From assembly GCA_016927655.1 (NCBI GenBank), contig JAFGMG010000001.1, positions 34,818 to 98,817 on the forward strand: 64,000 bases of DNA, given 5' to 3'. Of this stretch, positions 5,236-61,818 are shown piece after piece (the first letter of the stretch is position 1; each line of letters starts with the position of its first letter). Made by a program: the position numbers and the translations under genes. The DNA comes from Candidatus Dojkabacteria bacterium. GTDB lineage: Bacteria; Patescibacteriota; Dojkabacteria; B142; JAFGMG01. The notes under the pieces were generated by a model. The model searched no databases and was not told the DNA's origin. It saw only the letters and a list, made by a program, of their open reading frames with translations.

Positions 5236-5265
5236 TTTTCAAAATATTAATTAAATGTAAAGAGT

Positions 5266-30610: not shown

Positions 30611-31141
30611 GCTTTCTAAATCTTCCAGCTCCAGTATAAAAGCGCGCAATTTGGCCCATTCAAACAACATCGTAGGGAAAATTACAACCGGGAAAAGAAC
30701 TATCGTCCAGACATGAATATCAATAGCAATAGTTAGAAATGTTATTAGATAAATAACATAATAAATCAAAAAGCCAATCGAGAGACTACTGATCTTTCTT
30801 AGATCCTTTGTAAAATAAAGCACTATGGCAAACCAAAGAAAAGGCGTCGACAAGATCAAAGAGAGGGTGAGAATCGGCCTTATTAGCAGACTGTAATCAT
30901 AACCTTTCATATAAACCGCAAATACCGGGGATAAATAAGCTACAAAAAAAACCAGGAATGAACCGTATTTGAAATTTTTGGGGCTCAAAAACGCATTTTC
31001 CCTGATGAGCATTTGTAATTTCTTTGGTTTGCCCTTAAACGAGTCTTCCAATTCGTCAAATATCTCCGTCTGGCTTTTGCCTTGGATAAACATTTTTAGA
31101 ATATTTTTCTTTATATCGCTTAAAGAAGATTTAGTAGGCAT
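30584..31141 (-). CDS. hypothetical polytopic membrane protein
   Basis: 185 aa with several hydrophobic helices. Confidence 0.4.
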   Translation of the reverse strand: MPTKSSLSDIKKNILKMFIQGKSQTEIFDELEDSFKGKPKKLQMLIRENAFLSPKNFKYGSFLVFFVAYLSPVFAVYMKGYDYSLLIRPILTLSLILSTPFLWFAIVLYFTKDLRKISSLSIGFLIYYVIYLITFLTIAIDIHVWTIVLFPVVIFPTMLFEWAKLRAFILELEDLESLGSDSPKN

Positions 31142-37964: not shown

Positions 37965-38699
37965 ATGCTAAAAGTATCAGAATTAATTGCGGAGATAGAA
38001 AATACAAAAGTCTTAGATGGCTTATATCTTGAGGTAGGGGAAGGCCAGATCCATGTTTTACTAGGTCCAAATGGCTCGGGCAAAAGTAGCCTTTCAAAAG
38101 TCATTATGGGAGTGGGCGGGTACGAAGTGACAAGTGGAAGTATAGAGTTTGAGGGCAAAGATATCACAAATATAAGCCCAGATGAACGAGCGAGAATGGG
38201 GATATTCTTGGCGAATCAATACCCAATTGAAGTCCCAGGAGTTGGTCTCGCGAATTTCTTGCGACTTGCATACAATTCCAGATTTAGTGATGACAAAAAT
38301 AAACTATCAGTAACAAAATTTAAGAAATTGTTACAAGAAAAAGCAAAACTCGTAGATCTAGATGAAAAATTCCTGGACCGCAATCTCAATGAAGGCTTCT
38401 CAGGCGGAGAAAAGAAAAAAAGTGAGATCCTCCAAATGGCAGTCCTTGAGCCAAAGCTCGCAATTCTTGATGAGACCGACTCCGGACTAGATGTAGACGC
38501 ACTCAAACAAGTCTTTAAAGCAGTCAGCAAAATCAAAAAAGAAAATAAAGATATGACACTTCTAGTCATTACCCACTACGAAAGAGTATTTGAATACATC
38601 ACTCCAGACAAAGTACACGTGATGAAAGATGGAAAAATCATAGAAACAGGAGGCAAAGAATTAGCAGATAAAATCCAAAAACATGGCTTCAAAAAATAA
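37965..38699 (+). CDS. sufC: Fe-S cluster assembly ATPase SufC
   Basis: ABC ATPase with Walker [10 protein letters not shown], signature LSGGEKKK, and Walker [11 protein letters not shown]. Confidence 0.9.
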
Positions 38700-40098
38700 A
38701 CCCGCAATTGGCGGAAAAACCGAATACAAGGAGAAATATGGCTTTTCAGACCATATAAAGTATGCAAAAAAATTCCCAAAAGGCATCAATGAAGATGTGG
38801 TGAGGCAGATCTCAGCACTCAAAAATGAACCCAAATGGATGCTGGATATCAGACTGCGAGCTTACAAAGAGTTCATATCCAGGCCTATGCCAAAATGGGG
38901 AGCAGATCTCTCGCAAATTGACTTTGACAATATCCACTACTACGCCCAGGCAAGTGAAGGCGCCAAAAATGACTGGGAAGACGTTCCAGAAAAAATCAAG
39001 AGAACTTTTGATAAACTCCAAATTCCGCAAAGCGAAAGGAAATTCCTCGCAGGGACGGCCACACAATACGAATCAGAAGTGGTTTATAGCAACCTCAAAA
39101 AACAATGGTCTGATCTTGGCATAGTTTTCGAAGACACAGATACAGGATTACGAGAACATCCAGAGATTTTCAAAAAATATTTTGGAAAACTAATTCCATA
39201 CAAAGACAACAAATTCGCAGCACTCAATACTGCCGTTTGGAGTGGCGGGAGTTTCATCTACATACCAAAAGGAGTCAAGCTCGATATGCCACTACAGACA
39301 TACTTCAGGATCAATCTTGCAAATATGGGGCAGTTTGAAAGGACTTTAATAATCGCAGAAGAGAGGAGTAGTATATCCTACATAGAGGGGTGCTCGGCAC
39401 CAATGTATTCACGAGACTCACTCCACGCAGCAGTTGTGGAGATTTTTGTCCTCCCTGGTGCCAAAGTAAGATACACTACAATTCAAAACTGGTCAGACAA
39501 TGTATACAACCTTGTCACCAAACGGGCAGCAGCCTACAAAGACTCCAGAATGGAATGGATCGATTGCAATCTAGGCTCAAAAGTCACCATGAAATATCCT
39601 GCCGTCTGGCTCAAAGGTGCAGGCGCACATGGCGAAGTGCTCTCAATTGCATACGCCGACAAAGGACAAGTACTAGACGCAGGGGCAAAAATAGTTCACC
39701 ATGCGCCGCACACATCAAGCTTGATCAATTCCAAATCAATCTGCCTAAATGGAGGAAGAACAAGCTACAGAGGGCTTCTCAAAGCCACAGAAAAAGCAGC
39801 CAATTCTAAATCAAAAGTAATTTGTGACGCATTGATCTTCGATGATCAATCCAGAACAGATACATATCCAACAAACGAAATCGACAATCCATCATTCTCG
39901 CTCGAGCACGAGGCAAGCGTGAGCAAAGTTTCCACCGAGCAACTAGAATATTTAATGAGTAGAGGTTTGAGCGAAGAAGATGCATCAGCACTCATCGTTT
40001 CAGGCTTTCTAGAGCCAGTTGCCAAAGAACTACCAATTGAATATGCAGTTGAACTCAATGCTTTGATTAATATGAGCATGGAGGATAGCGTTGGTTAA
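38683..40098 (+). CDS. sufB: Fe-S cluster assembly protein SufB
   Basis: 471 aa with a SufB/SufD beta-helix core. Overlaps the sufC stop. Confidence 0.9.
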
Positions 40099-40555
40099 TT
40101 TGAAATTTAGTAAACAAATGCAAAAACTAGAAAAACTAAAAAATGAAATACTTATCGATACAACTGGGCAAACCAAGGCATATTTCCATGGGACTAGAGA
40201 TGACCAATTCAAAGGGAAGTTGGTTTTCGAAGTAAAAACTCCAAATATCAAGCATGAGGTGATTATCAAAGCAGTTCTGGAAGGCAGTTCAGAGCTAGAT
40301 CTCGAAGCAATTCTCAAAGTTCCAAAAGGTGCCAAAAATACAGACACTTATCTCAAACTCGAATGCCTACTACTTTCAGATAAAGCTAAAGCACGGGTGA
40401 TCCCCAGTCTGGAAATCATGGAAGATGCGGTCAAATCCGGCCATGGAGCGACGGTCAGTTCGGTCAATAAAGAACACATGGACTATTTAATGAGTCGGGG
40501 CCTAAGCAAAGACAATGCCAAAAAGATTATTATTGAAGGATTTTTAGATTTTTAG
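40091..40555 (+). CDS. sufD: short SufD-like protein (C-terminal SufBD-type domain only)
   Basis: 154 aa. Its C-terminus ([23 protein letters not shown]) parallels the SufB C-terminus ([23 protein letters not shown]). Confidence 0.5.
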
Positions 40556-43326
40556 TTCGGTGTGGGAGTAAATTTAACATCACTTCCCCCTCCATTTTGC
40601 ACTCTGATGAAATATCCGCTCCTTTCGAAGATGTTGTAGTCATTTCCATAGAGAGTGCTGTCTTCATATACTATGCTTGTGTAGAGTCCTCCTTCATACT
40701 TACTTACTACATCTGCTTCTATTCCTGCTTCATTCATATCTCTTACTAGCTCCTCTGCTGTGTAAGGGGCTTCATTTGTATATACTCCTACCAGATTCCA
40801 TCCGTTTCTGACTCTAAATGGTATTGGTTCATCAAATTTGTTTCCTTTGATCTTCGCTTCTACTGGTGTGTAGTTTAGTACAAAGTAGCTTTGTCCTGGG
40901 ACTATGTTGTAGTCATTTGAGAACTCCTGCTCATTTTCTCTCTTGGTATACATCTCAAAGCCACTGTCTGTGTATTTGGCGATATGCTTGATATCTGCTC
41001 CTTGGTTATTGAAGTGATCTAGGAGTTCACTTGCTGTACTTATTCCATCACTGCTAATGAGCGGCATTGTTATCAGGTTCCAGCCTGCGCTTAGATTGTA
41101 TGTTGCTACTTCACTGTCTTTCTTCAAGCTTAGTGATGTGTAGTCATCCAGCACTGGTTCATCTTTGTCTTTCTTCCCATTTCCGTTTGTATCGATGAAT
41201 AACCTGATCTCTGCTCTATCAGCTCCATCTAGATTCACTGCAAATTCACTTACTGGCTGTTCGAAGTTATCCCCGTAGTACACTACATAGTCTCCTGATT
41301 CGGTCGTTACTAACTTGTCTGTTGCTGCTGTAATTGGGCTCATCAGAGTTCCCGGAAGATCGCTTTCTCCTAATACCTTCTCCCTTCCTGACTCATCGAC
41401 TGCGAAACGCGATGTACCTGCCCTGATAGCAGTACAGGCTGTTTGAAATTCTGGATGTGTACCGATGATACAGGGGTATCCACCATAATCTCCAATTTCT
41501 AATGCATAAGTAGGGTAGACAGCCAAAATTTCAGACAATGTAGCTTCTGGCGAAATACACTGTCTATTATTTCCGGCAGTTGTTTTACGAAATACCGAGC
41601 CATTGTTCTCCGGACTACAATATAAACACCCTACTGGATAATTTAAACCTTGAAAAATACACGTTTCGTCGTCTACATTTCCATTATCTACAACCTCATC
41701 AGCTCTACAACGAATCATCCCATACTCTTCATTAATATAATCAGCAAGGTAGTTTAAAACTCCATCATAATTAACCCTGATAACCTTTGATGGGCTAATT
41801 GTACAACCATTATTACCATCCGAGATCACGTTAACCGTGACCTCCCACACATTATCTCCTACTCCTGTTGGAGTATCCGGGTCGAAATATTCGCATCCTG
41901 GTTTATAATCATATTCAATTCCAAGTCCTGGATGATCATAAGTGCAAACACCACTACCCTCTGCAAGAACAATATTAGCAACACCGGAGAGAGTCAAAGT
42001 CGGTGTGTTACCTACAGTCTCAGCTCCGTTAATAATAGCTGTATTGTTTCCCGCTGGAGCACCAACAGCACCGGTGGCAGCAGGGGCACCCCCGGCTTCC
42101 TGTCCTGCATATTTCCTCAATATCCCGCTTGCTTCTGCTGATACCTGCCCGCCAGTCGGGATACACCGGTCACAATATGATGCTGCTGTCCAGGGACAAC
42201 TCGAATCCTGCAAGCCACAAGGATTCTGGCTATTTACCTTGTGACATTTTCTGCTCCCTAAGTTCCCATCTGCATTACAAGGTTCATCATATGAATGATC
42301 ACAGGATTTTACTTCTCCCCCTTCACAAGTGGCAGCAGTTGGGGGATTGGAACTCCCATTCACCTGCACCCATTCACCACTCTCGCAAACATAAGTCCCA
42401 AAAGGCTTTGTAGTATCAGCATTATTTACCGCAAGAAAGCCATTCCCATAACACGCACCACCAGCCTCACAGGCACTTGCACCGCAGCCATCGGCTGTAG
42501 ACGCAAAAACCTTGCCGATAAGACCAGTACTCGAAGCAGAACCTTCTTCAACTACATCATCTCCTAGATAAATCACAGGTAATGGTTTGTACTCAACCAA
42601 TGTATAACTTGTAGAATCAGACATTTCGTCAGTTAATACATCGATTTTAATCAGGGTTGTGTCTAATTTCTGAAAAGTATTTCCGCTCACATCCCTAATA
42701 TTGGCTAAATCTGCTGCCCAGCTATGAGTTTCACTAATGACTGTAGAATATAGCTGACTTTTTATTTCAAAATCTCCCCGATTCACAAGATAGAAATAAA
42801 CAATCCCATCATTTGGCGGCTCTTTGGTAAGGTCTGAGGACAAAACACTTCCATAAACTGGATCTGGAGTAACTAAATCTTCATTAACCGACAGCGTTGT
42901 AATCCCAGGCAGGGCCACTCCATTCTCATCTTTGTCTACATTCAATAACCGGCCGACCACACTCACCTCATATTCTTTTTCCGGTTCCAGTCCTCTGATA
43001 CTTATATGATGAGTATTACGTTTCTGCGCACCAACGGGTTTCAGATCATACTCTCCAGTTGCGACATTTTGCTCAATATCCCGGTCATCATAAAATACTT
43101 CATCCATCCACATCCCGCCAACCTCGCGAATTCTTACTTTCGCTACTAGCTTTTCTTCAGAATACCAGCTGAAAGCAGCTCCGGAATCCGTTACATTTGA
43201 AACGATGGGATTTTCAATCCTGATATTTTGGTCTTTATAAATTGCAAACCCAAACAAAATTGCAAAAATAGCAATAATGCCTGCAGCAAAAAGTCCAATT
43301 ATAAGAGATGTCGTCTTCTTTTGCAT
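40552..43326 (-). CDS. giant secreted/surface protein paralogue (924 aa)
   Basis: Shares the N-terminal FN3-like module and the C-terminal double GWNL repeat with 34518..37871, including a near-identical last ~60 aa. The Cys-rich middle differs. Confidence 0.6.
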   Translation of the reverse strand: MQKKTTSLIIGLFAAGIIAIFAILFGFAIYKDQNIRIENPIVSNVTDSGAAFSWYSEEKLVAKVRIREVGGMWMDEVFYDDRDIEQNVATGEYDLKPVGAQKRNTHHISIRGLEPEKEYEVSVVGRLLNVDKDENGVALPGITTLSVNEDLVTPDPVYGSVLSSDLTKEPPNDGIVYFYLVNRGDFEIKSQLYSTVISETHSWAADLANIRDVSGNTFQKLDTTLIKIDVLTDEMSDSTSYTLVEYKPLPVIYLGDDVVEEGSASSTGLIGKVFASTADGCGASACEAGGACYGNGFLAVNNADTTKPFGTYVCESGEWVQVNGSSNPPTAATCEGGEVKSCDHSYDEPCNADGNLGSRKCHKVNSQNPCGLQDSSCPWTAASYCDRCIPTGGQVSAEASGILRKYAGQEAGGAPAATGAVGAPAGNNTAIINGAETVGNTPTLTLSGVANIVLAEGSGVCTYDHPGLGIEYDYKPGCEYFDPDTPTGVGDNVWEVTVNVISDGNNGCTISPSKVIRVNYDGVLNYLADYINEEYGMIRCRADEVVDNGNVDDETCIFQGLNYPVGCLYCSPENNGSVFRKTTAGNNRQCISPEATLSEILAVYPTYALEIGDYGGYPCIIGTHPEFQTACTAIRAGTSRFAVDESGREKVLGESDLPGTLMSPITAATDKLVTTESGDYVVYYGDNFEQPVSEFAVNLDGADRAEIRLFIDTNGNGKKDKDEPVLDDYTSLSLKKDSEVATYNLSAGWNLITMPLISSDGISTASELLDHFNNQGADIKHIAKYTDSGFEMYTKRENEQEFSNDYNIVPGQSYFVLNYTPVEAKIKGNKFDEPIPFRVRNGWNLVGVYTNEAPYTAEELVRDMNEAGIEADVVSKYEGGLYTSIVYEDSTLYGNDYNIFERSGYFIRVQNGGGSDVKFTPTPN

Positions 43327-48945: not shown

Positions 48946-49665
48946 ATGCCAGTAAGAGGGAAATTCATTGTCTTTGAAGGATTAAATGGCTGCGGAAAGG
49001 GCGTTGCGGTTAATTATGCAAAAGAATATTTTAATAAAAATGAAGTATATGATCTTCGTGATCATATGCGTAAATATAACAATCTTCCAGAAGCTTCAGA
49101 TCTAAAAAAGTACAAAGTTATTTTATCAGCCGAACCCACGCATAGTTGGGTGGGAGCAGCCATTAGGCAGGAAATGTTTTATGATAATGGCCGGGACTAT
49201 ACCGGGGAGAATATGTTATCCGCCTATTCTTTAGACAGGCTAATTTTATACAAGAGAGTACTTGTACCATTTAGGGAACTTGGAGGAATAGTCATTCAGG
49301 AAAGAACTATCAGTACAACGTTAATACAGCAGCCTGTGCAAGAACATAAACCAGTTGATATTGATACAATTATAAATCATCCAAATCATGAGTACATCCT
49401 AAAAAACTTACCTGATGAAATTATTATTTATAGAGTTGATCCAAAAAAAGTCGGAGAGTGGTTATTTGTAAGAGAAGAACAAGAAAATGACATTTTTGAA
49501 AAGCTCAAAATGCAGAAAAAATTTCAGAAGCGCTGGGAATCTACCTGGTTTAAAGAATTTTTTGAAAAGCGAGGAACAAAAATCAGCTATATTGATAATT
49601 TTGGAAGCTTAAATGAATTTGAACAAACCGTAGAAGAACTCTACAAGAATTTATTCCCGAAATAA
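48946..49665 (+). CDS. P-loop nucleoside/nucleotide kinase, thymidylate-kinase-like
   Basis: N-terminal FIVFEGLNGCGKG resembles the Tmk/dNK P-loop (IVFEGxDGxGK). Confidence 0.45.
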   Translation: MPVRGKFIVFEGLNGCGKGVAVNYAKEYFNKNEVYDLRDHMRKYNNLPEASDLKKYKVILSAEPTHSWVGAAIRQEMFYDNGRDYTGENMLSAYSLDRLILYKRVLVPFRELGGIVIQERTISTTLIQQPVQEHKPVDIDTIINHPNHEYILKNLPDEIIIYRVDPKKVGEWLFVREEQENDIFEKLKMQKKFQKRWESTWFKEFFEKRGTKISYIDNFGSLNEFEQTVEELYKNLFPK

Positions 49666-49674
49666 TTATAAAAC

Positions 49675-49902
49675 TCAGTTATAAACCGTCTCCATTGAAT
49701 AGCCGCAGGTTGGGCATAGAAATCCTGCTTCAAGGAAAAAGATCTGGTTGCCGCACTCCGGACAATGCGTTTTTGCCTCGACCTCTTTTGAAGGACGCAT
49801 TTCCCGCTCAAGCACCTTTATCTGCTCAGAAGCAAAGCTTCGCTGATATTTGTGCATAAAAGCCTGTTGTAACAAGTAAAACCAAGCATACACAAGAAGC
49901 AA
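49675..49902 (-). CDS. small zinc-ribbon protein
   Basis: CPECGN...CPTCGY. 75 aa. Confidence 0.35.
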   Translation of the reverse strand: MLLVYAWFYLLQQAFMHKYQRSFASEQIKVLEREMRPSKEVEAKTHCPECGNQIFFLEAGFLCPTCGYSMETVYN

Positions 49903-50025
49903 AGGCAGAAATAGCTAGAGTATTTATTAGAACGCTAAAACGATAAATCAATTACATCTTTTGACGGATGAGGAATAAAAAGATATCATCAGAGCACAAA
50001 GATTCTAAATCTTACCCCAAACTTT

Positions 50026-51621
50026 ATGAAATTAAAGTCGAGCTTCAATAAAGTTTTAAATATTGCATCACTCGAATCAAAGGATGCTCAAATCAAGGTG
50101 CATACTCTTCTGCAAAGCGAGAAAAATAAGCAGCCTTCCATCAATGCCTATCTTGGTGCAAGATACAGCAGATCAGCAGATTCAATAACTGATATCGCAA
50201 AAGAGATCATGGAGAGCAAGACAGATGCTGCTAAAAAACTCGAGATGATATTTCAAGGATATGGACACAAATCAGTAGGCGACATGGCAGGAATTTTTGT
50301 CTGTATAGAAAATATTCCGATGTTTCTTGCTCAAAAATTGTTTTACATGAACCCGGTACACGCAGGCCAGGAGAGATCTACCAGATACCAGAACTTTCAA
50401 GAGCCGGAATTTGCCAAAATGCCAAAAGGGACAGATCCTGAGATTGCAAAAGAATACGAGGAAATATTTAACTTGTGGATGCAAAATTACCTGGAAGTAA
50501 TGGAGCCTACAAAACAAGCTCTACAAAAGCAATTCAAGCCAGATAAGGGCGATAAAATGCAGAAAGGCGCTCTCCAGGCGAGGACTTTCGATACAGCAAG
50601 ATTCTTTCTGCCAATAGGGCTGCAAACAAGCCTAGCACTCTCAATGTCCGCAAGAAGCTGGGCAGAGCTTATCGGCTACTTGCGGGCAAGCAATCTTGGG
50701 GTCGCAAGAGAACTTGGAGAAATGCTCTATGTTCTGCTGACAGGAAACGATGAGTTGAAAAAAGAAGGCTACGTTCCGGAAGCAGATGGATTGATCAGGC
50801 ACACAGAGGCAAATCAAACTAGAAATAATTCGACGAGAGAAATACTAGAGCTTATTAGAAACAAATCCCTTCCAAAGAAAAATCTAAGCCTGCAGACTCC
50901 TCAGACCAGCAACTCAAAAGTAAATCTTGGAAATTCCGCGATTAGAGATTTCAGCAGACACTATGCTTTACTGATAAATCCTCTTGCAGATGTGGATAAA
51001 TTCAAACTTGATAATGTAACACTCAAAAAAATCGGCAGAATCCTCTCAAAATACCACAACCAGCACAATCAAATCGGGACAATCGCTCAAACCGGGGCAA
51101 TTTTAATCGAAGGTTTTGGCGACTATGGAAGTGTACTCAAAGATATCAACCGCCACAGAAGTCTGGAAAGATTTTTCCCTTTGCTTGAAGATTGGGTTGA
51201 TATTGACGCCGAACTTGGAAGAGAAGAGTCCGAGTGCTTCTTCCTTTGTGATTACCTCGAAATCAACTCGTTTGAAAAATTAAGAGCTGATTATAAAAAG
51301 CGTTTCGATCGAACATACAAAAGACTTAAGAACTGGTCTTTAAATGCAAAGGGAAAAATCTCAGAAGATCTGAGACTTGAGTATACGAGATATCTTCTTC
51401 CTCATGCACATGCCTGCAGATACAGGCTTTATGGATCGATTGATGATTGGCAGTATTTGATCCATCTTCGAATCCGTAATGGCGGACATATCTCGTATAG
51501 AAAGCTTGCCTATGACTGGCTTGTCAGATTGAGTAAGGCAGCTCCTGTATTTACAGGGATGGCGGATAAACTTGAAAAAGTAGACCATAATTCGCGGGAG
51601 CAATTCTTTGATAGATCATGA
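50026..51621 (+). CDS. ThyX-family (flavin-dependent thymidylate synthase-like) domain protein with a degenerate active-site motif and a ~280-aa C-terminal extension
   Basis: Residues ~90-230 align by eye with ThyX core blocks: IPMFLAQKLFYMNPVHAGQERSTRY against [24 protein letters not shown], and ARFFLPIGLQTSLALSMSARSWAELIGYLRA against [30 protein letters not shown]. The RHR motif is replaced by PVH. Confidence 0.5.
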   Translation: MKLKSSFNKVLNIASLESKDAQIKVHTLLQSEKNKQPSINAYLGARYSRSADSITDIAKEIMESKTDAAKKLEMIFQGYGHKSVGDMAGIFVCIENIPMFLAQKLFYMNPVHAGQERSTRYQNFQEPEFAKMPKGTDPEIAKEYEEIFNLWMQNYLEVMEPTKQALQKQFKPDKGDKMQKGALQARTFDTARFFLPIGLQTSLALSMSARSWAELIGYLRASNLGVARELGEMLYVLLTGNDELKKEGYVPEADGLIRHTEANQTRNNSTREILELIRNKSLPKKNLSLQTPQTSNSKVNLGNSAIRDFSRHYALLINPLADVDKFKLDNVTLKKIGRILSKYHNQHNQIGTIAQTGAILIEGFGDYGSVLKDINRHRSLERFFPLLEDWVDIDAELGREESECFFLCDYLEINSFEKLRADYKKRFDRTYKRLKNWSLNAKGKISEDLRLEYTRYLLPHAHACRYRLYGSIDDWQYLIHLRIRNGGHISYRKLAYDWLVRLSKAAPVFTGMADKLEKVDHNSREQFFDRS

Positions 51622-51672
51622 GGATTAGTATATAATGGTAATGTAGTCTCTATCTGTTAGAAAAATTTACTG

Positions 51673-52203
51673 ATGAAAGGAATCATTTTATTTGCAAGTA
51701 ATACTGGAAACGTTGAGAAATTCGCCAGTCAGCTTACAGATAAACTTGACGGAAGCTTCGAAATAGTAAATATAAAAACTACCAGCCCGAATAATATAAA
51801 AATCCGTGAATTTGAAAAAGTTGTGATTGGCACCTATATGAGAAGACAGAAGGCCGATCCTGATATCATCGATTTTATTATTCGAAACAGAGATATACTC
51901 CTGGAAAAGGACGTTTACATTTTTGTTTCAGCACTTGAAGCCGGTGGCAGCTACGAAAGAGAAATAATGCTTTCTTTCCCGGACAAAATCAGAGACACTT
52001 TTGAGATTTACAATGTCGGCGCTATATTTAATTATGATGGATTGAGATACATTGAGAAGGTCATGCTCAAGAATATCGCCAGCAGGCAGGGGAAAACTAT
52101 CGAGGAACTCCAGACATTTAATGAAAAACGCCTGGATAAATTTGCAGAAATCGTAAACACCACTAAACCTCAAGATAACATTGAGAAGAAGAAAGAAGAC
52201 TGA
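51673..52203 (+). CDS. flavodoxin-like / NrdI-like flavoprotein
   Basis: N-terminal MKGIILFASNTGNVEKFA matches the flavodoxin-fold FMN-binding loop (S/T-x-T-G-N-T/V). Confidence 0.4.
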   Translation: MKGIILFASNTGNVEKFASQLTDKLDGSFEIVNIKTTSPNNIKIREFEKVVIGTYMRRQKADPDIIDFIIRNRDILLEKDVYIFVSALEAGGSYEREIMLSFPDKIRDTFEIYNVGAIFNYDGLRYIEKVMLKNIASRQGKTIEELQTFNEKRLDKFAEIVNTTKPQDNIEKKKED

Positions 52204-52659: not shown

Positions 52660-53796
52660 TTATTTCCCCACTTTTTGTTCGAAATTCTCTCTTTTTCTAA
52701 TTGCCCTGTTTTCTCTAGCCTGCTTAGTCCTCTCATACATATCAATGACAAATCCTTTTATATTGAATTGAAGAAGGAATAATCCTCCAACAATTGCAAG
52801 GGCAGCATAGAGTAATTCGTCTGTTTTATCATCAATTATTGCCGTTTTCGGAAGTCCGCCGTCAACCGGGATATATGCTTCGCATCTGCATGTTGTAGTG
52901 CAGGTTTCGCCACTCAAACAGCCAGTAGGATTTGCTGCATAATCGCAGTACTCACCCGGATCAAGAGTGCCATCGCCGCACGTTTCAAGAACCTCTTCGC
53001 AAAGACAGGTTCTCGTATTGCAAGTAAATCCCTCCTCACAGTCTACACCAACCTCGCATTCCTCGTCGTCCTGGTTGATCTCGCCATCACCGCAAGTTGC
53101 TTGTGTTGTAACTGTTTTACATAGACATGTTGTAGTGTTGCATTTCTTACCAGCATAAGTACCCGTGCAGGGGATTCCGACTTCGCACTGTTCACTGGTT
53201 TGATTTATCTTGCCATCTCCGCATTTTGGCTCTGCTGGCACACACCGGCAAACACCCGTATTTACCCCACCGCCATCAGCATCGATTTGTACGCAATAGC
53301 CAGGAGAATATGCTCTATAGGTCGCTCCAGCTTGACCATCTTCATTGGCATAATTTGTCCCGTTCGAAGCATCTGTAATACAATCTGGGTAGAATGTATG
53401 ACTTGTACCAGTATATGCTCTTCTAAATTTCTTGATTTTTACACTGCTGGTACAGCCAGAGCTTAAAGAAAATGAAGTCACATCACCGCTAACTGTTGCA
53501 TAACAGGAGGTTGTTCCCTGACATTGAGACCAGCCTGCCATCCATTCATCCGTGGTATCACACCTTCCATCTGCCCAATCCCCACCGGTACAACACTTGT
53601 TGCAATCTTGAGTTTCAACACACCAGCCACATCCTGCATTACATTGTCCAGCAACAGAAGTATCTTCGGTCGTCTCCGTAGGCGTTTCCTCCTGTGTCAG
53701 TTGATATCCGAAATAAATTGCTCCAGCTCCTAGTGCAAGAGCTACAATTATCAGGATAATGGTGATTGTTTTGTTCATAGCAAGATGTCTCAACAA
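52660..53796 (-). CDS. cysteine-rich surface protein with tandem CGDG(x)4-6EEC repeats. N-terminal TM plus a C-terminal TM with a short basic tail
   Basis: KCGDGKINQTSEQCEVG, TCGDGEINQDDEECEVG and TCGDGTLDPGEYCDY resemble the Myxococcus-type cysteine-rich repeat. Confidence 0.5.
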   Translation of the reverse strand: MLRHLAMNKTITIILIIVALALGAGAIYFGYQLTQEETPTETTEDTSVAGQCNAGCGWCVETQDCNKCCTGGDWADGRCDTTDEWMAGWSQCQGTTSCYATVSGDVTSFSLSSGCTSSVKIKKFRRAYTGTSHTFYPDCITDASNGTNYANEDGQAGATYRAYSPGYCVQIDADGGGVNTGVCRCVPAEPKCGDGKINQTSEQCEVGIPCTGTYAGKKCNTTTCLCKTVTTQATCGDGEINQDDEECEVGVDCEEGFTCNTRTCLCEEVLETCGDGTLDPGEYCDYAANPTGCLSGETCTTTCRCEAYIPVDGGLPKTAIIDDKTDELLYAALAIVGGLFLLQFNIKGFVIDMYERTKQARENRAIRKRENFEQKVGK

Positions 53797-54778: not shown

Positions 54779-54853
54779 GGTGGTTGTAGCTCAATTGGTT
54801 AGAGCACCGGTTTGTGGTACCGGGGGTTGTGGGTTCAAGTCCCATCTACCACC
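54779..54853 (+). tRNA. tRNA-His (anticodon GUG) with G-1 and discriminator C. CCA is encoded immediately 3' (to 54856)
   Basis: Hand-folded: G-1, acceptor GUGGUUG/CUACCAC (one mismatch), UA, D-arm GCUC-AAUUGGUUA-GAGC, anticodon stem CCGGU/ACCGG with loop UUGUGGU, T-arm GUGGG-UUCAAGU-CCCAU. Confidence 0.8.
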
Positions 54854-56305
54854 CCATACTGTACTATCTTCCAAATTTGCAAGTAGATTGAACGGTTCTA
54901 AGTAGTCGTAGTGCAGTTTTTTGCCATCCCATGTAACGTTCTGAAGTACAGTCTTGATTAAAAGCTGAGCTTCATGAGGTTCCGAACGTTTAAATAACTC
55001 TGCACTATGCTTAGCCAGCTCTACAATAAGGTTTGCGGTCACATAGAAGGCTCTATCGACCTTTTGTACATTGGTTAATTTCCTTTCTATTTCGTCTAGT
55101 TGAGATTGATACTGTTTGTTCTTTTTTTCATACAATTCATTAGTAATACTTTCATCATATTTATCATCTAGTAGTTTTAGCATTCTATTATTAATAGCCT
55201 CTCTTTCTGAAACCAGATGTTTTATCAGGTCTTTTGAAATACCGTAGCTAGTCTCATTTAAATCTCTTAGGTCTTTGAGTACTTTTTCTGCAGTATTTTT
55301 ATCAAGTTGGATATTCTTAAAAGCTTTGGCAAATTGGTTCTTAAGAATTTCCTCACTTACATATTGAGCTCCATGCTTTCCTCCGTATTGTGTACATCTG
55401 TAATAGTTTTTCCCTCTTTGTTCTTCTGGGCTTAATGTATAACCGCAGACAGAGCATTTTATTAATGTTCTATAATGGAACTCCTTGCCCCTATATTTTT
55501 CTTTTCCATCCCATTTTGTTCGTCCTTCTTTAATATCTTGTACTTGATTAAATAAGTGTTCAGATACTATCGTTTCGTAGATATGTGGATACTCAAGATT
55601 TTTCTTTTTGTAGGTTGCAATGCCTATATAAAACTTATCTCCAAGTATTCTACCTATCATGGATTTACCAAGTTTTATATTATAGTCTTCAAGTATTTTT
55701 GCTGATAGTTGGCTCATTGAGTAAGTTTGTGTTGCGTATAATTCATATAGCTTTGCAACAACAATAGCCTCAATAGGTACTACTTTAACTGTCTTAATGC
55801 CTTTATCTGCATCAATAGTTATATTTTTATATCCAAATGGAGCTTTAGTAAGTATTTCTCCACTTTTTACTTTTACATCTATTTTCCTTTTTACATTGTC
55901 ACTTATAGCATCCGAATAATATTGAGCGAGTAATGCCCCAAGGTTAAATTTGAATTTCTCTGTAGCATATGAGTTCTTATCAATAATCAAGTTTTCAGAT
56001 GAAAAATGTAGTACAACTTTATCATCGTCTAATAGCCTTTGTATAGGGACTATGTGCATGAAATTTCTTAGTAGTCTGTCTACCTTATCGACTACCAATG
56101 CCACTTTCTCTTTTTGTGACTCAACATGCTTAATTACTGCATCAAACTTTTCTCTTTGAGTTTTATAAGCTGATTCGTGGAAGTCAAAAACATCTTGTTC
56201 AGAATATGTGAAGTTCACTTTTTCAGCATAGTCCTTCAACTTCAACAGCTGACCATCTGTTTCTTGTTCGTCTGTTGATACTCTAGCTAAAAGAATTGCT
56301 TTCAT
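54791..56305 (-). CDS. large serine recombinase (resolvase/invertase catalytic domain + recombinase domain + zinc ribbon)
   Basis: N-terminal ILLARVSTDEQ (catalytic Ser) and VDRLLRN. C-terminal CSVCGY...YYRCTQY zinc ribbon. The last ~25 codons of the ORF are antisense to tRNA-His. Confidence 0.8.
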   Translation of the reverse strand: MKAILLARVSTDEQETDGQLLKLKDYAEKVNFTYSEQDVFDFHESAYKTQREKFDAVIKHVESQKEKVALVVDKVDRLLRNFMHIVPIQRLLDDDKVVLHFSSENLIIDKNSYATEKFKFNLGALLAQYYSDAISDNVKRKIDVKVKSGEILTKAPFGYKNITIDADKGIKTVKVVPIEAIVVAKLYELYATQTYSMSQLSAKILEDYNIKLGKSMIGRILGDKFYIGIATYKKKNLEYPHIYETIVSEHLFNQVQDIKEGRTKWDGKEKYRGKEFHYRTLIKCSVCGYTLSPEEQRGKNYYRCTQYGGKHGAQYVSEEILKNQFAKAFKNIQLDKNTAEKVLKDLRDLNETSYGISKDLIKHLVSEREAINNRMLKLLDDKYDESITNELYEKKNKQYQSQLDEIERKLTNVQKVDRAFYVTANLIVELAKHSAELFKRSEPHEAQLLIKTVLQNVTWDGKKLHYDYLEPFNLLANLEDSTVWGGRWDLNPQPPVPQTGALTN

Positions 56306-56310
56306 GTTTG

Positions 56311-57261
56311 TTAATAATTTGATCCATAAGTCTTATTTGTTAGTTCTGCCATAGTCTTCGAATTCAGGATATCTTCCAACTTGTAGTATCTAGGACCATA
56401 GAGAGCTAATTGAGGGGTATCACCTAAGATTACAGGATTCTCAAGTTTTTGAATGTTTCCATCATGATGAATAATGTACTTTCCTGGTTTACCTTCAAAT
56501 GGCTCAATTTTGGTAATTTTTGCATAATATCTAATACTACTGATTGGGGCGGCTTCGTAAAGTGCAACGTATTTTAATTTATCAATATTTGATTGACCTA
56601 TCCTTACAGCCCACCAAGCATTTTTCTCTTCGAAAGCCTTTATTCTTCCCTCTCCTTTACATGGTCCTACGATTGTATCGTAAACTCTCTCAGCATTTGT
56701 CTGATGCTCTTTTACTGGCTTTTCTTCTATTGCTACATCACCTTCATCTTTAAGTGGCTCAAAAAGGTTAAAGCCCAAAGTAGAAACGAGTAGTTCAACG
56801 TCATCAAAGAAATCTAGAATTGTTTCCTGTTTAAATTCATGAAGGTTGTTTTGGTTTGGATTTGTCCTATTTTGCACTTCAAATCTTCCTATTTCGATTG
56901 CCTTCATTACTGCATATGATTCAAGGAACTTAACATCTGCTTTATCTAGGCTTCCATTCGAAGATACTACTACTACTGCCCATTGCCAAAAATCTTTATT
57001 GACCTCGTGATTTTTTATTCGGTGGATAAAATTTTCACACTCTCCGATGTAAACACTTGTTCTTTCATCATCAAATAACATATACAAAGCAGGAGATGTA
57101 AGGTCTTGTCTTGTATTTGCAAAACTAATTTGATTCCTTGGGATTACATAGACTTTAGCTGTACTAACAGATAATTCAGCGATTTTCACTCCATTAGGAT
57201 CAGAGTCTTTAAGAAAAATCTGTATTGTTTTTGCTCGTGCCATGTTTATTTTATTAATCAA
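56311..57261 (-). CDS. GIY-YIG (T5orf172-like) nuclease domain protein with a C-terminal domain of unknown function
   Basis: ALYMLFDDERTSVYIGECENFIHRIKNH fits the GIY...YIG...N...R...H pattern. Confidence 0.45.
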   Translation of the reverse strand: MINKINMARAKTIQIFLKDSDPNGVKIAELSVSTAKVYVIPRNQISFANTRQDLTSPALYMLFDDERTSVYIGECENFIHRIKNHEVNKDFWQWAVVVVSSNGSLDKADVKFLESYAVMKAIEIGRFEVQNRTNPNQNNLHEFKQETILDFFDDVELLVSTLGFNLFEPLKDEGDVAIEEKPVKEHQTNAERVYDTIVGPCKGEGRIKAFEEKNAWWAVRIGQSNIDKLKYVALYEAAPISSIRYYAKITKIEPFEGKPGKYIIHHDGNIQKLENPVILGDTPQLALYGPRYYKLEDILNSKTMAELTNKTYGSNY

Positions 57262-57262
57262 A

Positions 57263-59149
57263 TTATGCTACCCAAAGGTTTTGACCAAATATACTCTTTA
57301 GATTCCACTTCTTTGTAGTGTCTACAGCCCGCTCTAAGCATATAAATCGCATGTCTTTCATGCCTTCCAGTATCTTTAGTGTTGAATTACTTATCGTGTC
57401 GTCTAGACACACTAGAGCTTCTTTCTCACCATCTGAAATCTTCCATATTTTGTTTTCTTTTATCTCTTCAATTAGTTCTTTATTGAAAGTAAGTTTGAAT
57501 CCATCTTTTAGAGCGATTTCATAAAGTAACTCTTCTTCTTCAAATTCAAACTTCATTTGAGACTTTGCTTTTTCTAAGTACTCCTCAAAAGCTTTCATAT
57601 TCTCATCTTCTGATTTCTCAGGATCAGGTGTAAATTGATTTTCAGGGAAGAAGCTAGGAGCCAATTTGAATACTTTAAATCCCAAATCGAGATTTTTACC
57701 ATCTTTGAGTAGTTTCCCTTCGTCTTCTTTCTTAATTTTTTCCGAAACTCTTTTAACTCTTTCAATACAGATATCTGATATTGTTTTATATCCTGCTTTG
57801 TACGCTTCACTCTTTTCATCTGTAAGTTCAGGAAGTTGTACTAGTATGTATTTTCTATTCCCACCATCTTCTTTATTTAGTTCCATTACTGCATGAGCAG
57901 TAGTTCCTGAGCCTGCAAAGAAGTCTAGAATTATATCGTCATTTTTACCATCAGAGGAAAGTTTTAATAGGTGCGATAATAGCTGGACTGGTTTGGTATA
58001 GTTGAAATAGTTATAGTTAAATATACTAAGAAAATCTAATGTAGCTGATTGTGTACTTCCTGCAATTGAGTGATCTAAAAATGAACGAGGTACGACCTTC
58101 TCCGCTTCACTAAGAAATTGCTTTTTTCTTGGGGATTTACTATTCCCGTCACTTCCCCAATAAAGCAAATTGTCCTCTAAATGCTTTTGATGTGTTTCTT
58201 TTGAATAGGCCCATACTGCAGTCTCACGTGGCCATATTTCCTCTCCTGTATTTGGATTTATAATAGGATAATACAAATTTGGTCTCTCATTTTTATTCTT
58301 ATTGCATGTATATGCAGCAGAATTCCAAGCACCTCGAGGATCATTATCGGGATTGGAATAATATGAGTTTTGTTTCGCTGTTCTTTCAAGTCGTTGTGGA
58401 TACCAGCTGTTTTTATCCTTTCCATAAACAAGTAAGTATTCATGATCACTGCTAAACCATTTTGAATCGTTTGCTGGAGAAACCCTTTTTTTCCAAACGA
58501 GCATAGCTACAAAATTTTCCTCTCCAAACACCTCATCCGTTATCTTTCTCAAATTATGGACTTCATTGTCATCAATACTCACGAATATAACTCCGTCATC
58601 TTTTAGAAGTTCTCTTGCTAAAACAAGCCTTGGATACATCATGTTTAGCCAATTGCTATGGTATCTACCTTGTGTTTCTGTGTTTGTATCTATCTTTACT
58701 CCATTTTCTGTAGTTCCACTCTTTTCCCAATATGCTTTTTTATCTTCTGAATAGTTATCTGAATATACAAAATCATTTCCAGTATTGTATGGAGGATCAA
58801 TATAAATACATTTAATCTTTCCTGAATATGACTTTTGTAAGAGCTTTAGAACCTCTAGATTGTCTCCTTCTATTATCATATTGTCTGTACTCTCAAACTC
58901 TATACTTCGCTCCTTGTCAGGCGTTAGATTCGCTCTGCTAGGCTTGTAGGCATTCCTTTTAGCAGATATTTTACCTGCCCAATTAAATTCATATTTACCT
59001 GTTGCAAGACTTGGATAGTTTTTACTCAAAAGTTCAAGCTCTTTGATGTCTAAAACCCCGTCTTCATTGAATAATTGAGGCATAGCACTTTGGAGTGCTT
59101 TAAGCTTTTCTTCTTGTAAATCGAGTGACTGTTTGTTGATTTTGTTCAT
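57263..59149 (-). CDS. mod: Type III restriction-modification methyltransferase (Mod). Beta-class N6-adenine / N4-cytosine MTase
   Basis: Motif IV YIDPPYNTGNDF near the N-terminus, motif I FFAGSGTTAHA near the C-terminus (beta permutation), and a central variable region. Confidence 0.75.
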   Translation of the reverse strand: MNKINKQSLDLQEEKLKALQSAMPQLFNEDGVLDIKELELLSKNYPSLATGKYEFNWAGKISAKRNAYKPSRANLTPDKERSIEFESTDNMIIEGDNLEVLKLLQKSYSGKIKCIYIDPPYNTGNDFVYSDNYSEDKKAYWEKSGTTENGVKIDTNTETQGRYHSNWLNMMYPRLVLARELLKDDGVIFVSIDDNEVHNLRKITDEVFGEENFVAMLVWKKRVSPANDSKWFSSDHEYLLVYGKDKNSWYPQRLERTAKQNSYYSNPDNDPRGAWNSAAYTCNKNKNERPNLYYPIINPNTGEEIWPRETAVWAYSKETHQKHLEDNLLYWGSDGNSKSPRKKQFLSEAEKVVPRSFLDHSIAGSTQSATLDFLSIFNYNYFNYTKPVQLLSHLLKLSSDGKNDDIILDFFAGSGTTAHAVMELNKEDGGNRKYILVQLPELTDEKSEAYKAGYKTISDICIERVKRVSEKIKKEDEGKLLKDGKNLDLGFKVFKLAPSFFPENQFTPDPEKSEDENMKAFEEYLEKAKSQMKFEFEEEELLYEIALKDGFKLTFNKELIEEIKENKIWKISDGEKEALVCLDDTISNSTLKILEGMKDMRFICLERAVDTTKKWNLKSIFGQNLWVA

Positions 59150-59151
59150 AT

Positions 59152-61818
59152 TTAGAAAATATTAAGATTAAGTTTGTTATTCGCCTTTGATTTAAAATCA
59201 GTAAAGCTTTCTACAGGTGCTAAGTACTCTTTTAGTCCAATAGCTTCAAAGTGTTTAATAGCACATTGTATTTTCATCTTCTCTGTTTCCTTTAGTTGAT
59301 TCCATTCTGTAGAACCTTTTGTTTCTATTACAAAGTAGTACTTTGTTGATTCTCCATCTTCAAGCGAGGTCTTTTCTAAAACAAGTGCAAAATCTGGATT
59401 GTATTTGCCAATTGGAGTATCGATCTCATACCATTTGGGAAGTTTTATAAATGCTTTGACCTTATTTTCATTATCAACTCCAAGTGTGAAGTCTTTCTCA
59501 ATATCTGAGTCGTAAATCACACCATCGTATAAGCCATTTTTAACTGGAACAATTTCACCGTATGTTTCGATAATTTCTTGAAAGAGCGAAGTATCGTAGC
59601 TATAGCCTAAGGTCTGATAATTCACTAGATTTACCATTTCATCTTCAAGTATGTGCTGAATCCTTTTAACTGCCTCTGCTACATAGATAATTGGATTTTT
59701 GTTAAGCATATGTTTATTATTTAACCCTTCAAATATCTGAATAACTGTATTTACACTTAGTGCAGTTTGTTCGGATATTTCATCTACAAAATCTATACTC
59801 ACAACTGATACCTTTGAAACAGCTTCATCACTTCCTACATGTCTTGAGCTTTCTGTAATGCCTACATCTTCAGATAGAGATTGAATTTTGTTAAGCTCTG
59901 AAATGATAGTTTGTTCTTGTACTACTATCTCGTTAAGTGATTCGATACATTTATCTACTAGCTCAGGTTCTCTAAATACAACAGAGTATTTAGTTTTTTG
60001 AGATATTTTCTTCCATAAGTTTTTAAAGTCATCACCTCCTAGAACTGATTTATTAAGCTTAATTTTATTGAGGTTCTTTCTGGCATCTCTTGGTTTTGGT
60101 AGAGGTGATTTAGTACCAAATTCTTCGATAAGTTCGCTTTGATAACTTTCAGCAAAAGAATAATAGCTTTGATTTGCAACAACCGTTAGTAAATTCACTT
60201 CTTGACCTTCTGAAATGTCTTCTGCATCTCTGTATCGCTTACCATCTTGCATAACTGATATTCTCAAACCTCTTCCTATCTCTTGCCTTTTCTTGATCGT
60301 ACTTTCGGATTCATTTAGTGTACAGATGTTAAACACATTCGGATTATCCCATCCAACGCCTAAAGCAGAGTGAGAGAATATAAATTCAAGTGGCTCATCA
60401 AATGAAAGCAATCTCTCTTTATCTTTCATAATAAGGTTGAATATCTCACTGTTTTTTGTCATTGAGTTCTCATTATCTGTATACTCTCCTGTTGATTTTG
60501 TCTTTGCAAAATAACCGTTATGAACTTTAGCTATATCATCAGGCTCAACTCCATATTTATTCTTGAACTCTTCTTGATAGATTTCTACAAATAACTTTCT
60601 AATAATTCCGTCTACTTCAACATAGTTAGCAACTCTATCAATGAAAAACAGTGATAAGACTTTAATGTCCTTTTCTTTATAAATTTCTTTTTTCTGGAAA
60701 TGTTTTTTAATCGTCCATCTTATTTGTTCTCTAAAAATTCCTTCTTTGTCCCACCCAATTTTATTCCCTTTAGTAAGTTCTGTTCCGTTAGAGAATCTAA
60801 CTTTTTCAGTACCATCTAGAGGATCAATCAAAATTCTACTAATTACCCAACCTCTGTATACAGGGTTCTTAGTTTTTTCTTCCAAATTATCACCATCTTT
60901 AAAATACATAGATTTAGTCCGAAGTTGATTTCCAAAGCTCACATTTAGCTTGGCCTCAGGCGGTTTTCCAGTATTTGAAGTTCGGAGTCCTTCGAACATA
61001 ATCTGTACATTACTCTGCATATTACTCTCATGAATTGAGAATACTTCTATCTTTTTAACCAAACCTTGATTATATGCATCATAAGGTGTTAATCGATAAA
61101 CCAGGTTAATTTGCTTTTTGTGTGTAGCAGAGTATCTTAATTTGAATAGAGGATTGAGTCCTGCAAATCTTTTCTTCATATTAGCTGAATCCATGCCCTC
61201 TTGTGGCTCATCCATTATGATAATAGGATTTGTTTGCTTGATTAGGTCAATGAGTTTAACTCCTTGGTTTGAATCTCTTTCTTGATTGATAATCCTGTCA
61301 TCCGTATTGAATGCTTGTACATTAGTAACCATGATTTGAAGTGTATTTCCAGTTGCAAAGTTTCTAACTCTTACAGGCTTTTTACTGTCGTATTCAAAGT
61401 AGTCTGCTTTTGTGTTGTAGAGCTGTTTAAAGTGTTGTTCTGTCATTTTAAGTGTTTTTATAACACCCTCTTTGACAGGAATACTTGGGACAACAATAAT
61501 AAACTTGTTTAATCCATATTCTTTGTGAAGCTCTAGAATTGTCCTTAGATAAACATAGGTTTTACCTGTACCTGTTTCCATTTCAATTGAGAAATCTAGT
61601 GTATCTTTATCTAAAAATGTTTCTAAAATTGAATTTTCTGTAGTAATTTGATTGAAGTTTTCAAATACCTTTTCAGGAGTGATTTTTAATACATTTTTTG
61701 AGACCTCACTGAATACTCTATTTTCAGCTTTAATGTAGGGTGCTCCATCAAAGAGCTTAACTACTGAGTTAATAGCATCTATTTGGTACTGTAAGTTTGG
61801 TTCAAATTGTATTTTCAT
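59152..61818 (-). CDS. res: Type III restriction endonuclease Res subunit (SF2 helicase-like ATPase + nuclease)
   Basis: Walker A METGTGKTY, DEAH-like box IIIMDEPQ, ~890 aa. Sits immediately upstream of and co-oriented with mod. Confidence 0.7.
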   Translation of the reverse strand: MKIQFEPNLQYQIDAINSVVKLFDGAPYIKAENRVFSEVSKNVLKITPEKVFENFNQITTENSILETFLDKDTLDFSIEMETGTGKTYVYLRTILELHKEYGLNKFIIVVPSIPVKEGVIKTLKMTEQHFKQLYNTKADYFEYDSKKPVRVRNFATGNTLQIMVTNVQAFNTDDRIINQERDSNQGVKLIDLIKQTNPIIIMDEPQEGMDSANMKKRFAGLNPLFKLRYSATHKKQINLVYRLTPYDAYNQGLVKKIEVFSIHESNMQSNVQIMFEGLRTSNTGKPPEAKLNVSFGNQLRTKSMYFKDGDNLEEKTKNPVYRGWVISRILIDPLDGTEKVRFSNGTELTKGNKIGWDKEGIFREQIRWTIKKHFQKKEIYKEKDIKVLSLFFIDRVANYVEVDGIIRKLFVEIYQEEFKNKYGVEPDDIAKVHNGYFAKTKSTGEYTDNENSMTKNSEIFNLIMKDKERLLSFDEPLEFIFSHSALGVGWDNPNVFNICTLNESESTIKKRQEIGRGLRISVMQDGKRYRDAEDISEGQEVNLLTVVANQSYYSFAESYQSELIEEFGTKSPLPKPRDARKNLNKIKLNKSVLGGDDFKNLWKKISQKTKYSVVFREPELVDKCIESLNEIVVQEQTIISELNKIQSLSEDVGITESSRHVGSDEAVSKVSVVSIDFVDEISEQTALSVNTVIQIFEGLNNKHMLNKNPIIYVAEAVKRIQHILEDEMVNLVNYQTLGYSYDTSLFQEIIETYGEIVPVKNGLYDGVIYDSDIEKDFTLGVDNENKVKAFIKLPKWYEIDTPIGKYNPDFALVLEKTSLEDGESTKYYFVIETKGSTEWNQLKETEKMKIQCAIKHFEAIGLKEYLAPVESFTDFKSKANNKLNLNIF

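Follow-up and report, generated by a model that had tools for sequence, protein, structure and literature searches.

The stretch of DNA analysed here (the window) comprises 64,000 nucleotides of a contig from a Candidatus Dojkabacteria bacterium (JAFGMG010000001.1, positions 34,818 to 98,817), and carries a gene, thyX, encoding a protein of 531 amino acids (aa). According to sequence comparison and structure models, this protein is very probably a genuine flavin-dependent thymidylate synthase of a subfamily in which the ThyX domain is duplicated in tandem, and it would serve the ordinary synthesis of deoxythymidine monophosphate (dTMP). The two halves appear to keep complementary parts of one active site. 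An earlier reading made from the letters alone (the sequence-only reading) had described a divergent ThyX-like protein lacking the RHR motif and carrying a long non-ThyX extension, and had proposed a pathway for a modified pyrimidine; the apparent anomaly arose because only the first of the two ThyX domains had been read. All four open reading frames (ORFs) that it had described, encoding a kinase, a Zn-ribbon protein, ThyX and a flavodoxin-fold protein, are present where it had placed them.

Two ThyX domains in one chain

The gene and its two domains lie as follows.

50026-51621, + strand: thyX, probable tandem ThyX-ThyX flavin-dependent thymidylate synthase, 531 aa (Pfam Thy1)
50026-50814, + strand: N-terminal ThyX domain, aa 1-263 (Thy1 match, profile-profile alignment)
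50815-51621, + strand: C-terminal ThyX domain, aa 264-531 (Thy1 match, AF2 model, Foldseek)

The 531-aa protein matched Pfam PF02511 (Thy1, EC 2.1.1.148) at 80.3 bits (cut-off 24.8, E=2.1e-22) in two separate stretches. The N half alone scored 60.5 bits, so the N-terminal similarity to ThyX noticed by eye is real, while residues 264-531 alone scored 23.1 bits, just below the threshold of 24.8, and matched profile positions 102-191 of 191. An NCBI entry named 'FAD-dependent thymidylate synthase' of Candidatus Dojkabacteria has the same sequence (100% identity), and the phage protein family phrog_36506 of PHROG, annotated 'thymidylate synthase', was aligned to the 531-aa protein end to end (aa 7-530 to positions 5-491 of 491, E=3.5e-61).

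Structure prediction pointed in the same direction. The full-length AF2 model (pLDDT 88.9, pTM 0.88) had the ThyX of Thermotoga maritima as its top Foldseek matches, with a TM-score normalised to the target of ~0.67. The C half modelled alone by AlphaFold (pLDDT 91.3, pTM 0.85) matched only ThyX among its top 36 PDB structures (Foldseek probability 1.00, TM-score to target 0.56-0.70, ~230 aligned columns), the best being those of Mycobacterium tuberculosis, the chlorella virus PBCV-1, Corynebacterium glutamicum, Thermus thermophilus and T. maritima; the M. tuberculosis enzyme (3gwc) was matched with E=6.5e-6. A profile built from 28 C halves also retrieved the PBCV-1 ThyX from the PDB at E=0.02, with RHRS placed on RHRS and with a block of the form LPxxxxTxxxxxGxxxDxxxxIxLRTxNG aligned as well. 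On the Thy1 match, the PBCV-1 alignment and the fold model, the C-terminal ~270 aa, previously regarded as a ~280-aa extension foreign to ThyX, represent a second ThyX domain. Compared directly with each other, the profiles of the N and C halves gave a weak match (E=0.0037 over 64 columns); the internal duplication thus rests on the match of each half to ThyX and not on similarity between the halves.

The sequence-only reading had itself named a profile search as the test of its proposal, and this search returned a confident ThyX whose motifs had been misplaced by eye. The structure modelling that it had suggested gave a full-length and a C-half model which both match solved ThyX.

Active-site residues divided between the halves

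The ThyX of T. maritima, with a sequence equal to PDB 1KQ4, was used as the reference for residue numbering. Alignments by hhalign in global mode, or to the single T. maritima sequence, were meaningless or short, and a small canonical ThyX profile built from viral ThyX genes was needed, to which each half was aligned by hhalign. Both halves then aligned collinearly over nearly the whole 220-residue enzyme, the N domain covering T. maritima residues 9-215, with the following equivalences.

T. maritima H53: N half H81; C half Q346
T. maritima T55: N half S83; C half N348
T. maritima E58: N half D86; C half G351
T. maritima R78-H79-R80: N half M108-N109-P110; C half R376-H377-R378
T. maritima S83: N half A113; C half S379
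T. maritima N85/E86: N half Q115/E116; C half deleted
T. maritima S88: N half S118; C half L380
T. maritima R90: N half R120; C half R382
T. maritima Y91: N half Y121; C half F383
T. maritima R147: N half R192; C half R455
T. maritima R165: N half R210; C half D473
T. maritima R174: N half L219; C half R482
T. maritima H178: N half N223; C half G486 as aligned, or H488 if a 2-residue insertion is allowed (by eye)

Three motifs can be located directly in the gene.

50365-50388, + strand: GQERSTRY, aa 114-121, equivalent of canonical NELSGRY
51151-51162, + strand: RHRS motif, R376-H377-R378-S379 (pattern search)
51466-51489, + strand: L481-R482-I-R-N-G-G-H488, equivalent of canonical L173-R174...H178 (residue mapping)

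The N domain retains ARYSRS (45-50), H81, S83, D86, Q115, E116, S118, R120, Y121, D189, R192 and R210, and is without the RHR motif and the equivalent of R174 (L219). The serine block QERSTRY had been read correctly. The loss of RHR from this domain had also been recognised, although the supposed replacement PVH was misplaced: the position of the motif holds M108-N109-P110, and V111-H112 follow it. The C domain retains RHRS (376-379), R382, E452, R455, L481-R482, G487-H488 and Y491-R492, and is without equivalents of S88 (L380), N85/E86 (deleted) and R165 (D473). The protein as a whole therefore does not lack RHR, since RHRS stands at aa 376-379, and a pattern search found RHR in 120 out of 120 homologues listed.

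This division of residues is conserved across the family. In an alignment of sequences from 36 genomes, with a mean column identity of 57% and dozens of invariant residues, the RHRS residues are invariant. A wider check covered 135 full-length representatives with 23-49% identity to the query; H81, S83, Q115, S118, R120, R192 and R210 of the N half and R376, H377, R378, R482, G487, Y491 and R492 of the C half were near-invariant, while the 'lost' positions 108-110, 219, 380 and 473 varied freely. Counted individually, S118 is found in 136/136 family members, R120 and a Y or F at position 121 each in 135/136, and both R376 and R482 in 135/136 diverse members. The conservation pattern indicates that the two halves keep complementary parts of a single active site.

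Predicted reaction and assembly

Each active site of canonical ThyX is assembled from three subunits, of which subunit A gives RHR and Arg199 of M. tuberculosis (T. maritima R174), subunit B gives Ser71 and Arg190 (T. maritima T55 and R165), and subunit C gives Ser105, Arg107 and Tyr108 (T. maritima S88, R90 and Y91) (PMC6514825). R174 activates deoxyuridine monophosphate (dUMP), and S88, R90 and Y91 assist methylene transfer (PMC8316439). The reaction assigned to the 531-aa ThyX would be dUMP + methylenetetrahydrofolate (CH2-THF) + NAD(P)H -> dTMP. In this reaction the C domain is predicted to supply RHR, for binding the phosphate and ribityl groups of flavin adenine dinucleotide (FAD) and the dUMP phosphate, together with the dUMP-activating R482, and the N domain would supply S118, R120 and Y121 as the Ser/Arg/Tyr loop and, in contact with FAD, the Ser/Arg pair S83 and R210. 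With the role of subunit A coming from C domains only and the roles of B and C from N domains only, one site would need one C domain and two different N domains, and hence at least a dimer of the fused chain. A homodimer would form a pseudo-tetramer with two complete and two degenerate sites. We infer that the chain dimerises, that each dimer has two sites and that the enzyme is active; what the data show directly is the domain architecture, how the motifs are distributed and conserved, and the association of the gene with dTMP-pathway genes. The product would most likely be phosphorylated by the neighbouring Tmk-family kinase (dTMP -> dTDP).

A bolder proposal, offered tentatively and rather doubtful as a whole, is that evolution has frozen the tandem subfamily as a 'heterodimer in one chain', which works obligately with two sites after giving up 2 of the 4 ancestral ones, and that in the small sub-clade of the window the neighbouring flavodoxin, and not NAD(P)H directly, may be the electron donor. 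The complementary motif loss is a clean parallel in nature to an active site built by three subunits and predicts a two-site pseudo-tetramer. As a practical matter, ThyX-like ORFs of ~500-600 aa need to be checked for motifs in both domains.

Relatives and their gene context

The 531-aa protein stands at the head of a close-knit group of proteins, 528-585 aa long, that come from Dojkabacteria (WS6), Pacebacteria and Microgenomates. At E<=1e-30 the search of representatives gave 245 matching clusters; of the 150 best, almost all are 480-640 aa long and match in one stretch spanning both halves. The tandem subfamily is widespread in Patescibacteria, Ktedonobacteria and cyanophages. Its distant members include proteins of cultured Ktedonobacteria (Dictyobacter spp., genomes of 4-6 Mb; P0324, P0365, P0371, P0386, P0317, P0346 and P0377), which are labelled 'hypothetical protein'. 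Such members in Woesebacteria, Daviesbacteria and Dictyobacter are open to re-annotation, while the gene contexts of two distant representatives were uninformative.

Gene context was surveyed in 80 relatives' loci from species-representative (GTDB) genomes. Tandem thyX is flanked by glyA in 65, folD in 61 and dcd in 58 of these loci, and the usual order is folD-glyA-thyX-dcd-sufS. The products of folD, glyA and dcd supply CH2-THF and dUMP, which supports a role of tandem thyX in dTMP synthesis. In other relatives the neighbours are tmk, tdk, dut and dcd in L080, dCMP deaminase and SurE in L082, and ribonucleotide reductase (RNR) in L084. A natural Tmk-ThyX-ThyX fusion (P0283, 758 aa, kinase domain at aa 11-185) is encoded on a 1.10-Mb contig of Candidatus Daviesbacteria, and is labelled 'hypothetical protein' by NCBI.

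The tandem subfamily is already labelled thymidylate synthase in public databases, and the 531-aa protein is a member of it. For the window protein itself, annotated as thymidylate synthase and assigned here to ordinary dTMP synthesis, this leaves little weight as a lead.

Comparison with known thymidylate synthases

Both halves share the fold and the Pfam family of the canonical homotetrameric flavin-dependent enzymes (T. maritima TM0449, 1O26/1KQ4; M. tuberculosis, 3GWC; PBCV-1, 2CFA). The catalytic residue set is also the same once the two halves are pooled, and the same pathway neighbours folD, glyA and dcd occur in relatives of the window protein. Unlike the canonical enzymes, the window protein has two domains per chain, neither of which alone carries the full motif set; the contiguous canonical RHRxxSxxxxSxRY is split between domains ~260 residues apart, and a dimer with two sites is predicted instead of a tetramer with four.

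A described protein of the same architecture is gp020 of the Microcystis phage Ma-LMM01 (YP_851034.1), which, with its counterpart in MaMV-DC, gave a collinear full-length match at 30% identity over 98-99% of the query. It is annotated 'thymidylate synthase' and has an identical motif layout, its N half containing ARYSRS, YGH and GQERSTRY, its C half NRHRS and LRSRVGGHINYR. It differs in being shorter (491 aa), in having D/E at the positions of S208/R210 of the window protein, and in its viral context, whereas the thyX of the window is chromosomal. No experimental characterisation of the phage two-domain thymidylate synthase was found in the literature searched. In the viral contig L099 (IMG/VR), which carries a canonical ThyX, the frame upstream of the ThyX match continues into non-ThyX-like sequence (…HYNGKQHIYEVELENGKKIKTS…), which may be an intein or Hint-type insertion in the viral thyX.

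The literature searched held no description of a split motif or of a tandem, fused or double ThyX architecture, and nothing relevant on ThyX in Patescibacteria. The chlamydial ThyX (CT632) likewise has a double length (~529 aa), and its purification and activity are reported by Griffin et al. (J Biol Chem 2005, cited in PMC2386288); the architecture as such is thus probably familiar to specialists already. The ThyX of Chlamydia trachomatis has been cloned and assayed (PMC3498832).

Neighbouring genes

Three genes accompany thyX at the locus.

48946-49665, + strand: divergent thymidylate-kinase-family (deoxy)nucleoside monophosphate kinase, 239 aa (Pfam Thymidylate_kin)
49675-49902, - strand: small Zn-ribbon protein with CxxC...CxxC; 75 aa as the mechanical ORF from TTG at 49902, or 60 aa from ATG 49857
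51673-52203, + strand: flavodoxin-fold protein, 176 aa (Pfam Flavodoxin_5)

In the closest relative, L081 (ThyX 72% identical), all five genes are kept in the order kinase, Zn-ribbon, thyX, flavodoxin and UPF0102. In L106 (ThyX 66%) the kinase, thyX, flavodoxin and UPF0102 are present, and the place of the Zn-ribbon gene is an uncalled gap. In L082 and L083 (ThyX 63-64% identity), SurE takes the place of the flavodoxin, and the Tmk-family and Zn-ribbon genes are kept. Homologues of the kinase, Zn-ribbon and flavodoxin were found in none of the 80 more distant GTDB loci.

The kinase scored above the cut-off for Pfam Thymidylate_kin (34.2 bits, cut-off 27), in keeping with the Tmk-like P-loop kinase of the sequence-only reading, and below that of the NCBIfam dTMP kinase model TIGR00041 (60.6 bits, cut-off 83.25). 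It also matched the PHROG thymidylate kinase (E=1.5e-7), and the Tmk of Staphylococcus aureus was its best PDB match (E=4e-4). Its P-loop reads GLNGCGKG (canonical GxxGxGK[ST]), and an insertion follows the P-loop helix; the GKG form of the P-loop is normal in nucleoside monophosphate kinases of the adenylate-kinase type. A Thymidylate_kin-family gene also lies upstream of thyX in L081, L082, L083 and L106. The kinases of L081 and L083 are clearly of the divergent type of the window, and that of L082 is more canonical, with a GKTT P-loop. Phosphorylation of dTMP would be the simplest role for the divergent kinase, and the natural fusion supports it.

The Zn-ribbon ORF, present as described earlier with its CxxC...CxxC pattern, contains CPECGNQIFFLEAGFLCPTCGYS and probably starts at ATG 49857 to give 60 aa, as in L081. 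The gene separates the Tmk-like gene from thyX, and is encoded on the opposite strand, in the window, L081 (85% identity; 767-949), L082 (~5081-5266, - strand, where it is overlaid by a called 153-aa ORF on the other strand) and L083 (5579-5797). The protein resembles a stand-alone version of the C-terminal CxxC...CxxC tail of class II (B12-dependent) RNR (NF006417 positions 699-756 of 759, E=5.8e-6), and compared pairwise with the RNR tail in L084 it gave E=1e-5.

The gene downstream of thyX encodes a flavodoxin (Flavodoxin_5, E=4.4e-16) with the N-terminal phosphate-binding loop SNTGNV for flavin mononucleotide. The flavodoxin part of the earlier description holds, but the NrdI-like part does not, as only Flavodoxin_5, Flavodoxin_3 and Flavodoxin_1 matched at E<=1 and no NrdI profile did. 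The model of RNR-associated flavodoxins (TIGR01754) matched at E=0.014 only, and there is weak similarity to the solved flavodoxin 8g64. Only in the window, L081 and L106 does the flavodoxin gene follow thyX; its product could act as a reductant of ThyX, although this association is shallow. The flavodoxin and the Zn-ribbon protein are lineage-restricted neighbours.

Alternative explanations

Several observations weigh against the assignment to dTMP synthesis by a tandem ThyX with a divided active site. The NCBIfam equivalog TIGR02170 (thyX) scored 46.9 bits, below its cut-off of 87.9; its length of 211 profile positions is that of a single domain, and the shortfall is attributable to divergence and architecture and does not contradict family membership at the Pfam level. 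The full protein matched the PDB by sequence only at E ~0.3 over a 60-residue stretch, and no tandem-type sequence was found among solved structures in that sequence search. The profile-profile probabilities behind the residue mapping are low (41% and 8%), and single equivalences rest on motif identity and collinearity. In the window folD, glyA and dcd do not adjoin thyX, and tblastn of the whole window with relatives' FolD, GlyA, Dcd, Dut, Tdk and canonical Tmk gave no match. The Ktedonobacteria members, with their large genomes, could coexist with another thymidylate synthase.

It may be asked whether the fused enzyme acts on another substrate or yields another product (methylation of UMP or dCMP, or a hydroxymethylated or modified pyrimidine), with the kinase phosphorylating the product and the flavodoxin reducing the flavin. 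ThyX homologues with a changed range exist, and the UMP/dUMP methylase PolB of polyoxin biosynthesis (4P5A/4P5B) has the ThyX fold and, as 4p5b, is among the fold matches of the C half. PolB, however, ranks 37 there, below every bona fide ThyX, and is a single-domain protein of a secondary-metabolite cluster, while nothing in the window resembles a nucleoside-antibiotic cluster. The divergence of the kinase, with its score below the dTMP-kinase equivalog cut-off and its unusual GKG P-loop, the missed cut-off of TIGR02170, and the order kinase, Zn-ribbon, thyX and flavodoxin kept in the three closest genomes would also suit an altered substrate. However, the residues for dUMP binding, activation and methylene transfer are all conserved family-wide, the dominant context folD-glyA-thyX-dcd of the 80 relatives points to CH2-THF and dUMP supply, canonical tmk, tdk and dut neighbours and a Tmk fusion occur, and SurE replaces the flavodoxin in the next-closest genomes. 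We therefore consider an altered substrate improbable.

The more specific proposal of a modified-pyrimidine pathway is not borne out either, with RHR found in the second domain, the dUMP-methylation residues conserved, dTMP-pathway genes as neighbours in the family, and no hypermodification-pathway component found among the scanned ORFs of the window or in the PADLOC and PHROG comparisons. Phage thymidine-hypermodification pathways stand in a phage or defence context with a pyrimidine hydroxymethylase, a 5-hydroxymethyl-deoxyuridine (5-hmdU) kinase and transferases or glycosyltransferases, none of which was recognised at the locus. The only glycosyltransferases of the window lie at 29492-32333, ~17-20 kb off and beside a LytR_cpsA_psr gene, and look like cell-envelope genes. 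PADLOC gave no match for the ThyX, Zn-ribbon, flavodoxin and UPF0102 proteins and one weak partial match for the kinase (VakA, E=2e-4). Apart from the ordinary PHROG families for thymidylate synthase, thymidylate kinase and flavodoxin, the only phage families matched were two of unknown function, to which the Zn-ribbon ORF was weakly similar. A defence or phage island at the thyX locus was likewise considered and rejected, its GC (guanine plus cytosine) content being the same as in the flanks and ThyX having no PADLOC match. The fallback offered in the sequence-only reading, that ThyX is simply divergent in this lineage, was essentially right.

For a genuine tandem ThyX, one could still suppose that the fused chain works as a monomer, or that all four pseudo-sites are active and the half-site reading is an alignment artefact. 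The low-probability profile alignments used for the mapping leave room for such a view, R382/F383 of the C half could replace R90/Y91, and R192 and R455 both align with R147. It is nevertheless unlikely, as RHR and R482 are confined to the C half and S118 and the Q115/E116 loop to the N half, near-invariantly across 135 members, and as the free variation of the 'lost' positions is what relaxed selection on dead sites would give. Moreover, canonical sites take residues from three subunits, which is beyond a single two-domain chain. That the gene is a decaying or non-catalytic relic, with dTMP coming from salvage or another synthase, is barely conceivable: bacteria of the candidate phyla radiation (CPR) are often salvage-dependent and tdk lies near thyX in some relatives, yet the ORF is intact, the conservation over the 36 genomes (57% mean column identity, dozens of invariant residues) is high, and the catalytic residues are kept over 135 representatives in a family of 245 clusters at E<=1e-30. 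A catalytic two-domain ThyX with a divided site thus remains the preferred reading.

Other features of the window

The window is a low-GC segment of a bacterial chromosome (GC content ~0.40), and the GC content of the thyX locus is equal to that of its flanks. The minus-strand short ORFs at 1-20 kb are taken to be a ribosomal-protein operon. Beyond them, Pfam scans identified NusA, SufBCD/SufS/SufU, RecF, trigger factor and Dus, and Dus, trigger factor, RecF, SufS/SufU and UPF0102 are the housekeeping neighbours of the thyX locus. These scans covered 31 ORFs of the window, leaving out ~20 ORFs at 1-20.5 kb and a 1117-aa ORF at 34518-37871; they showed no RNR or further thymidylate-synthase domain, and no dedicated search of the window for ThyA or single-domain ThyX was made. 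Scans for promoters and terminators found no more than chance would give (14 promoter-like sites, with 10.6 +/- 3.4 expected), and therefore no operon is claimed for the locus.

Downstream of the locus, at 52660-53796 (- strand), lies a gene for a cysteine-rich protein of 378 aa, which has no Pfam match; a membrane segment stands at its N terminus, and CGDG.I...EECE-like modules recur in it. Homologous unassigned genes occupy the same position in L081, L082 and L083. Further on, a large serine recombinase ORF (54791-56305, - strand) overlaps the 3' part of tRNA-His (54780-54856, + strand), and beyond it follow an unassigned 316-aa ORF, a DNA methylase (57263-59149) and a type III restriction Res-like helicase-endonuclease (59152-61818). 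The GC content falls to 0.31-0.35 in 54780-61818, and this segment resembles an island inserted at tRNA-His, with a type III restriction-modification system as its cargo.

Among the remaining ORFs, two are very large, one of 924 aa (40552-43326, - strand), without a Pfam match, and the aforementioned one of 1117 aa (34518-37871, - strand). At 25855-26466 (+ strand) an AbiEii-type nucleotidyltransferase toxin domain (type IV toxin-antitoxin, E=2e-12) was detected, with a 123-aa ORF just upstream. Finally, 38683-40555 (+ strand) holds a 471-aa SufB/D-core protein and then an overlapping 154-aa ORF, whose match is limited to the final 125 positions of the SUFBD core and which may be a truncated or frameshifted SufD.

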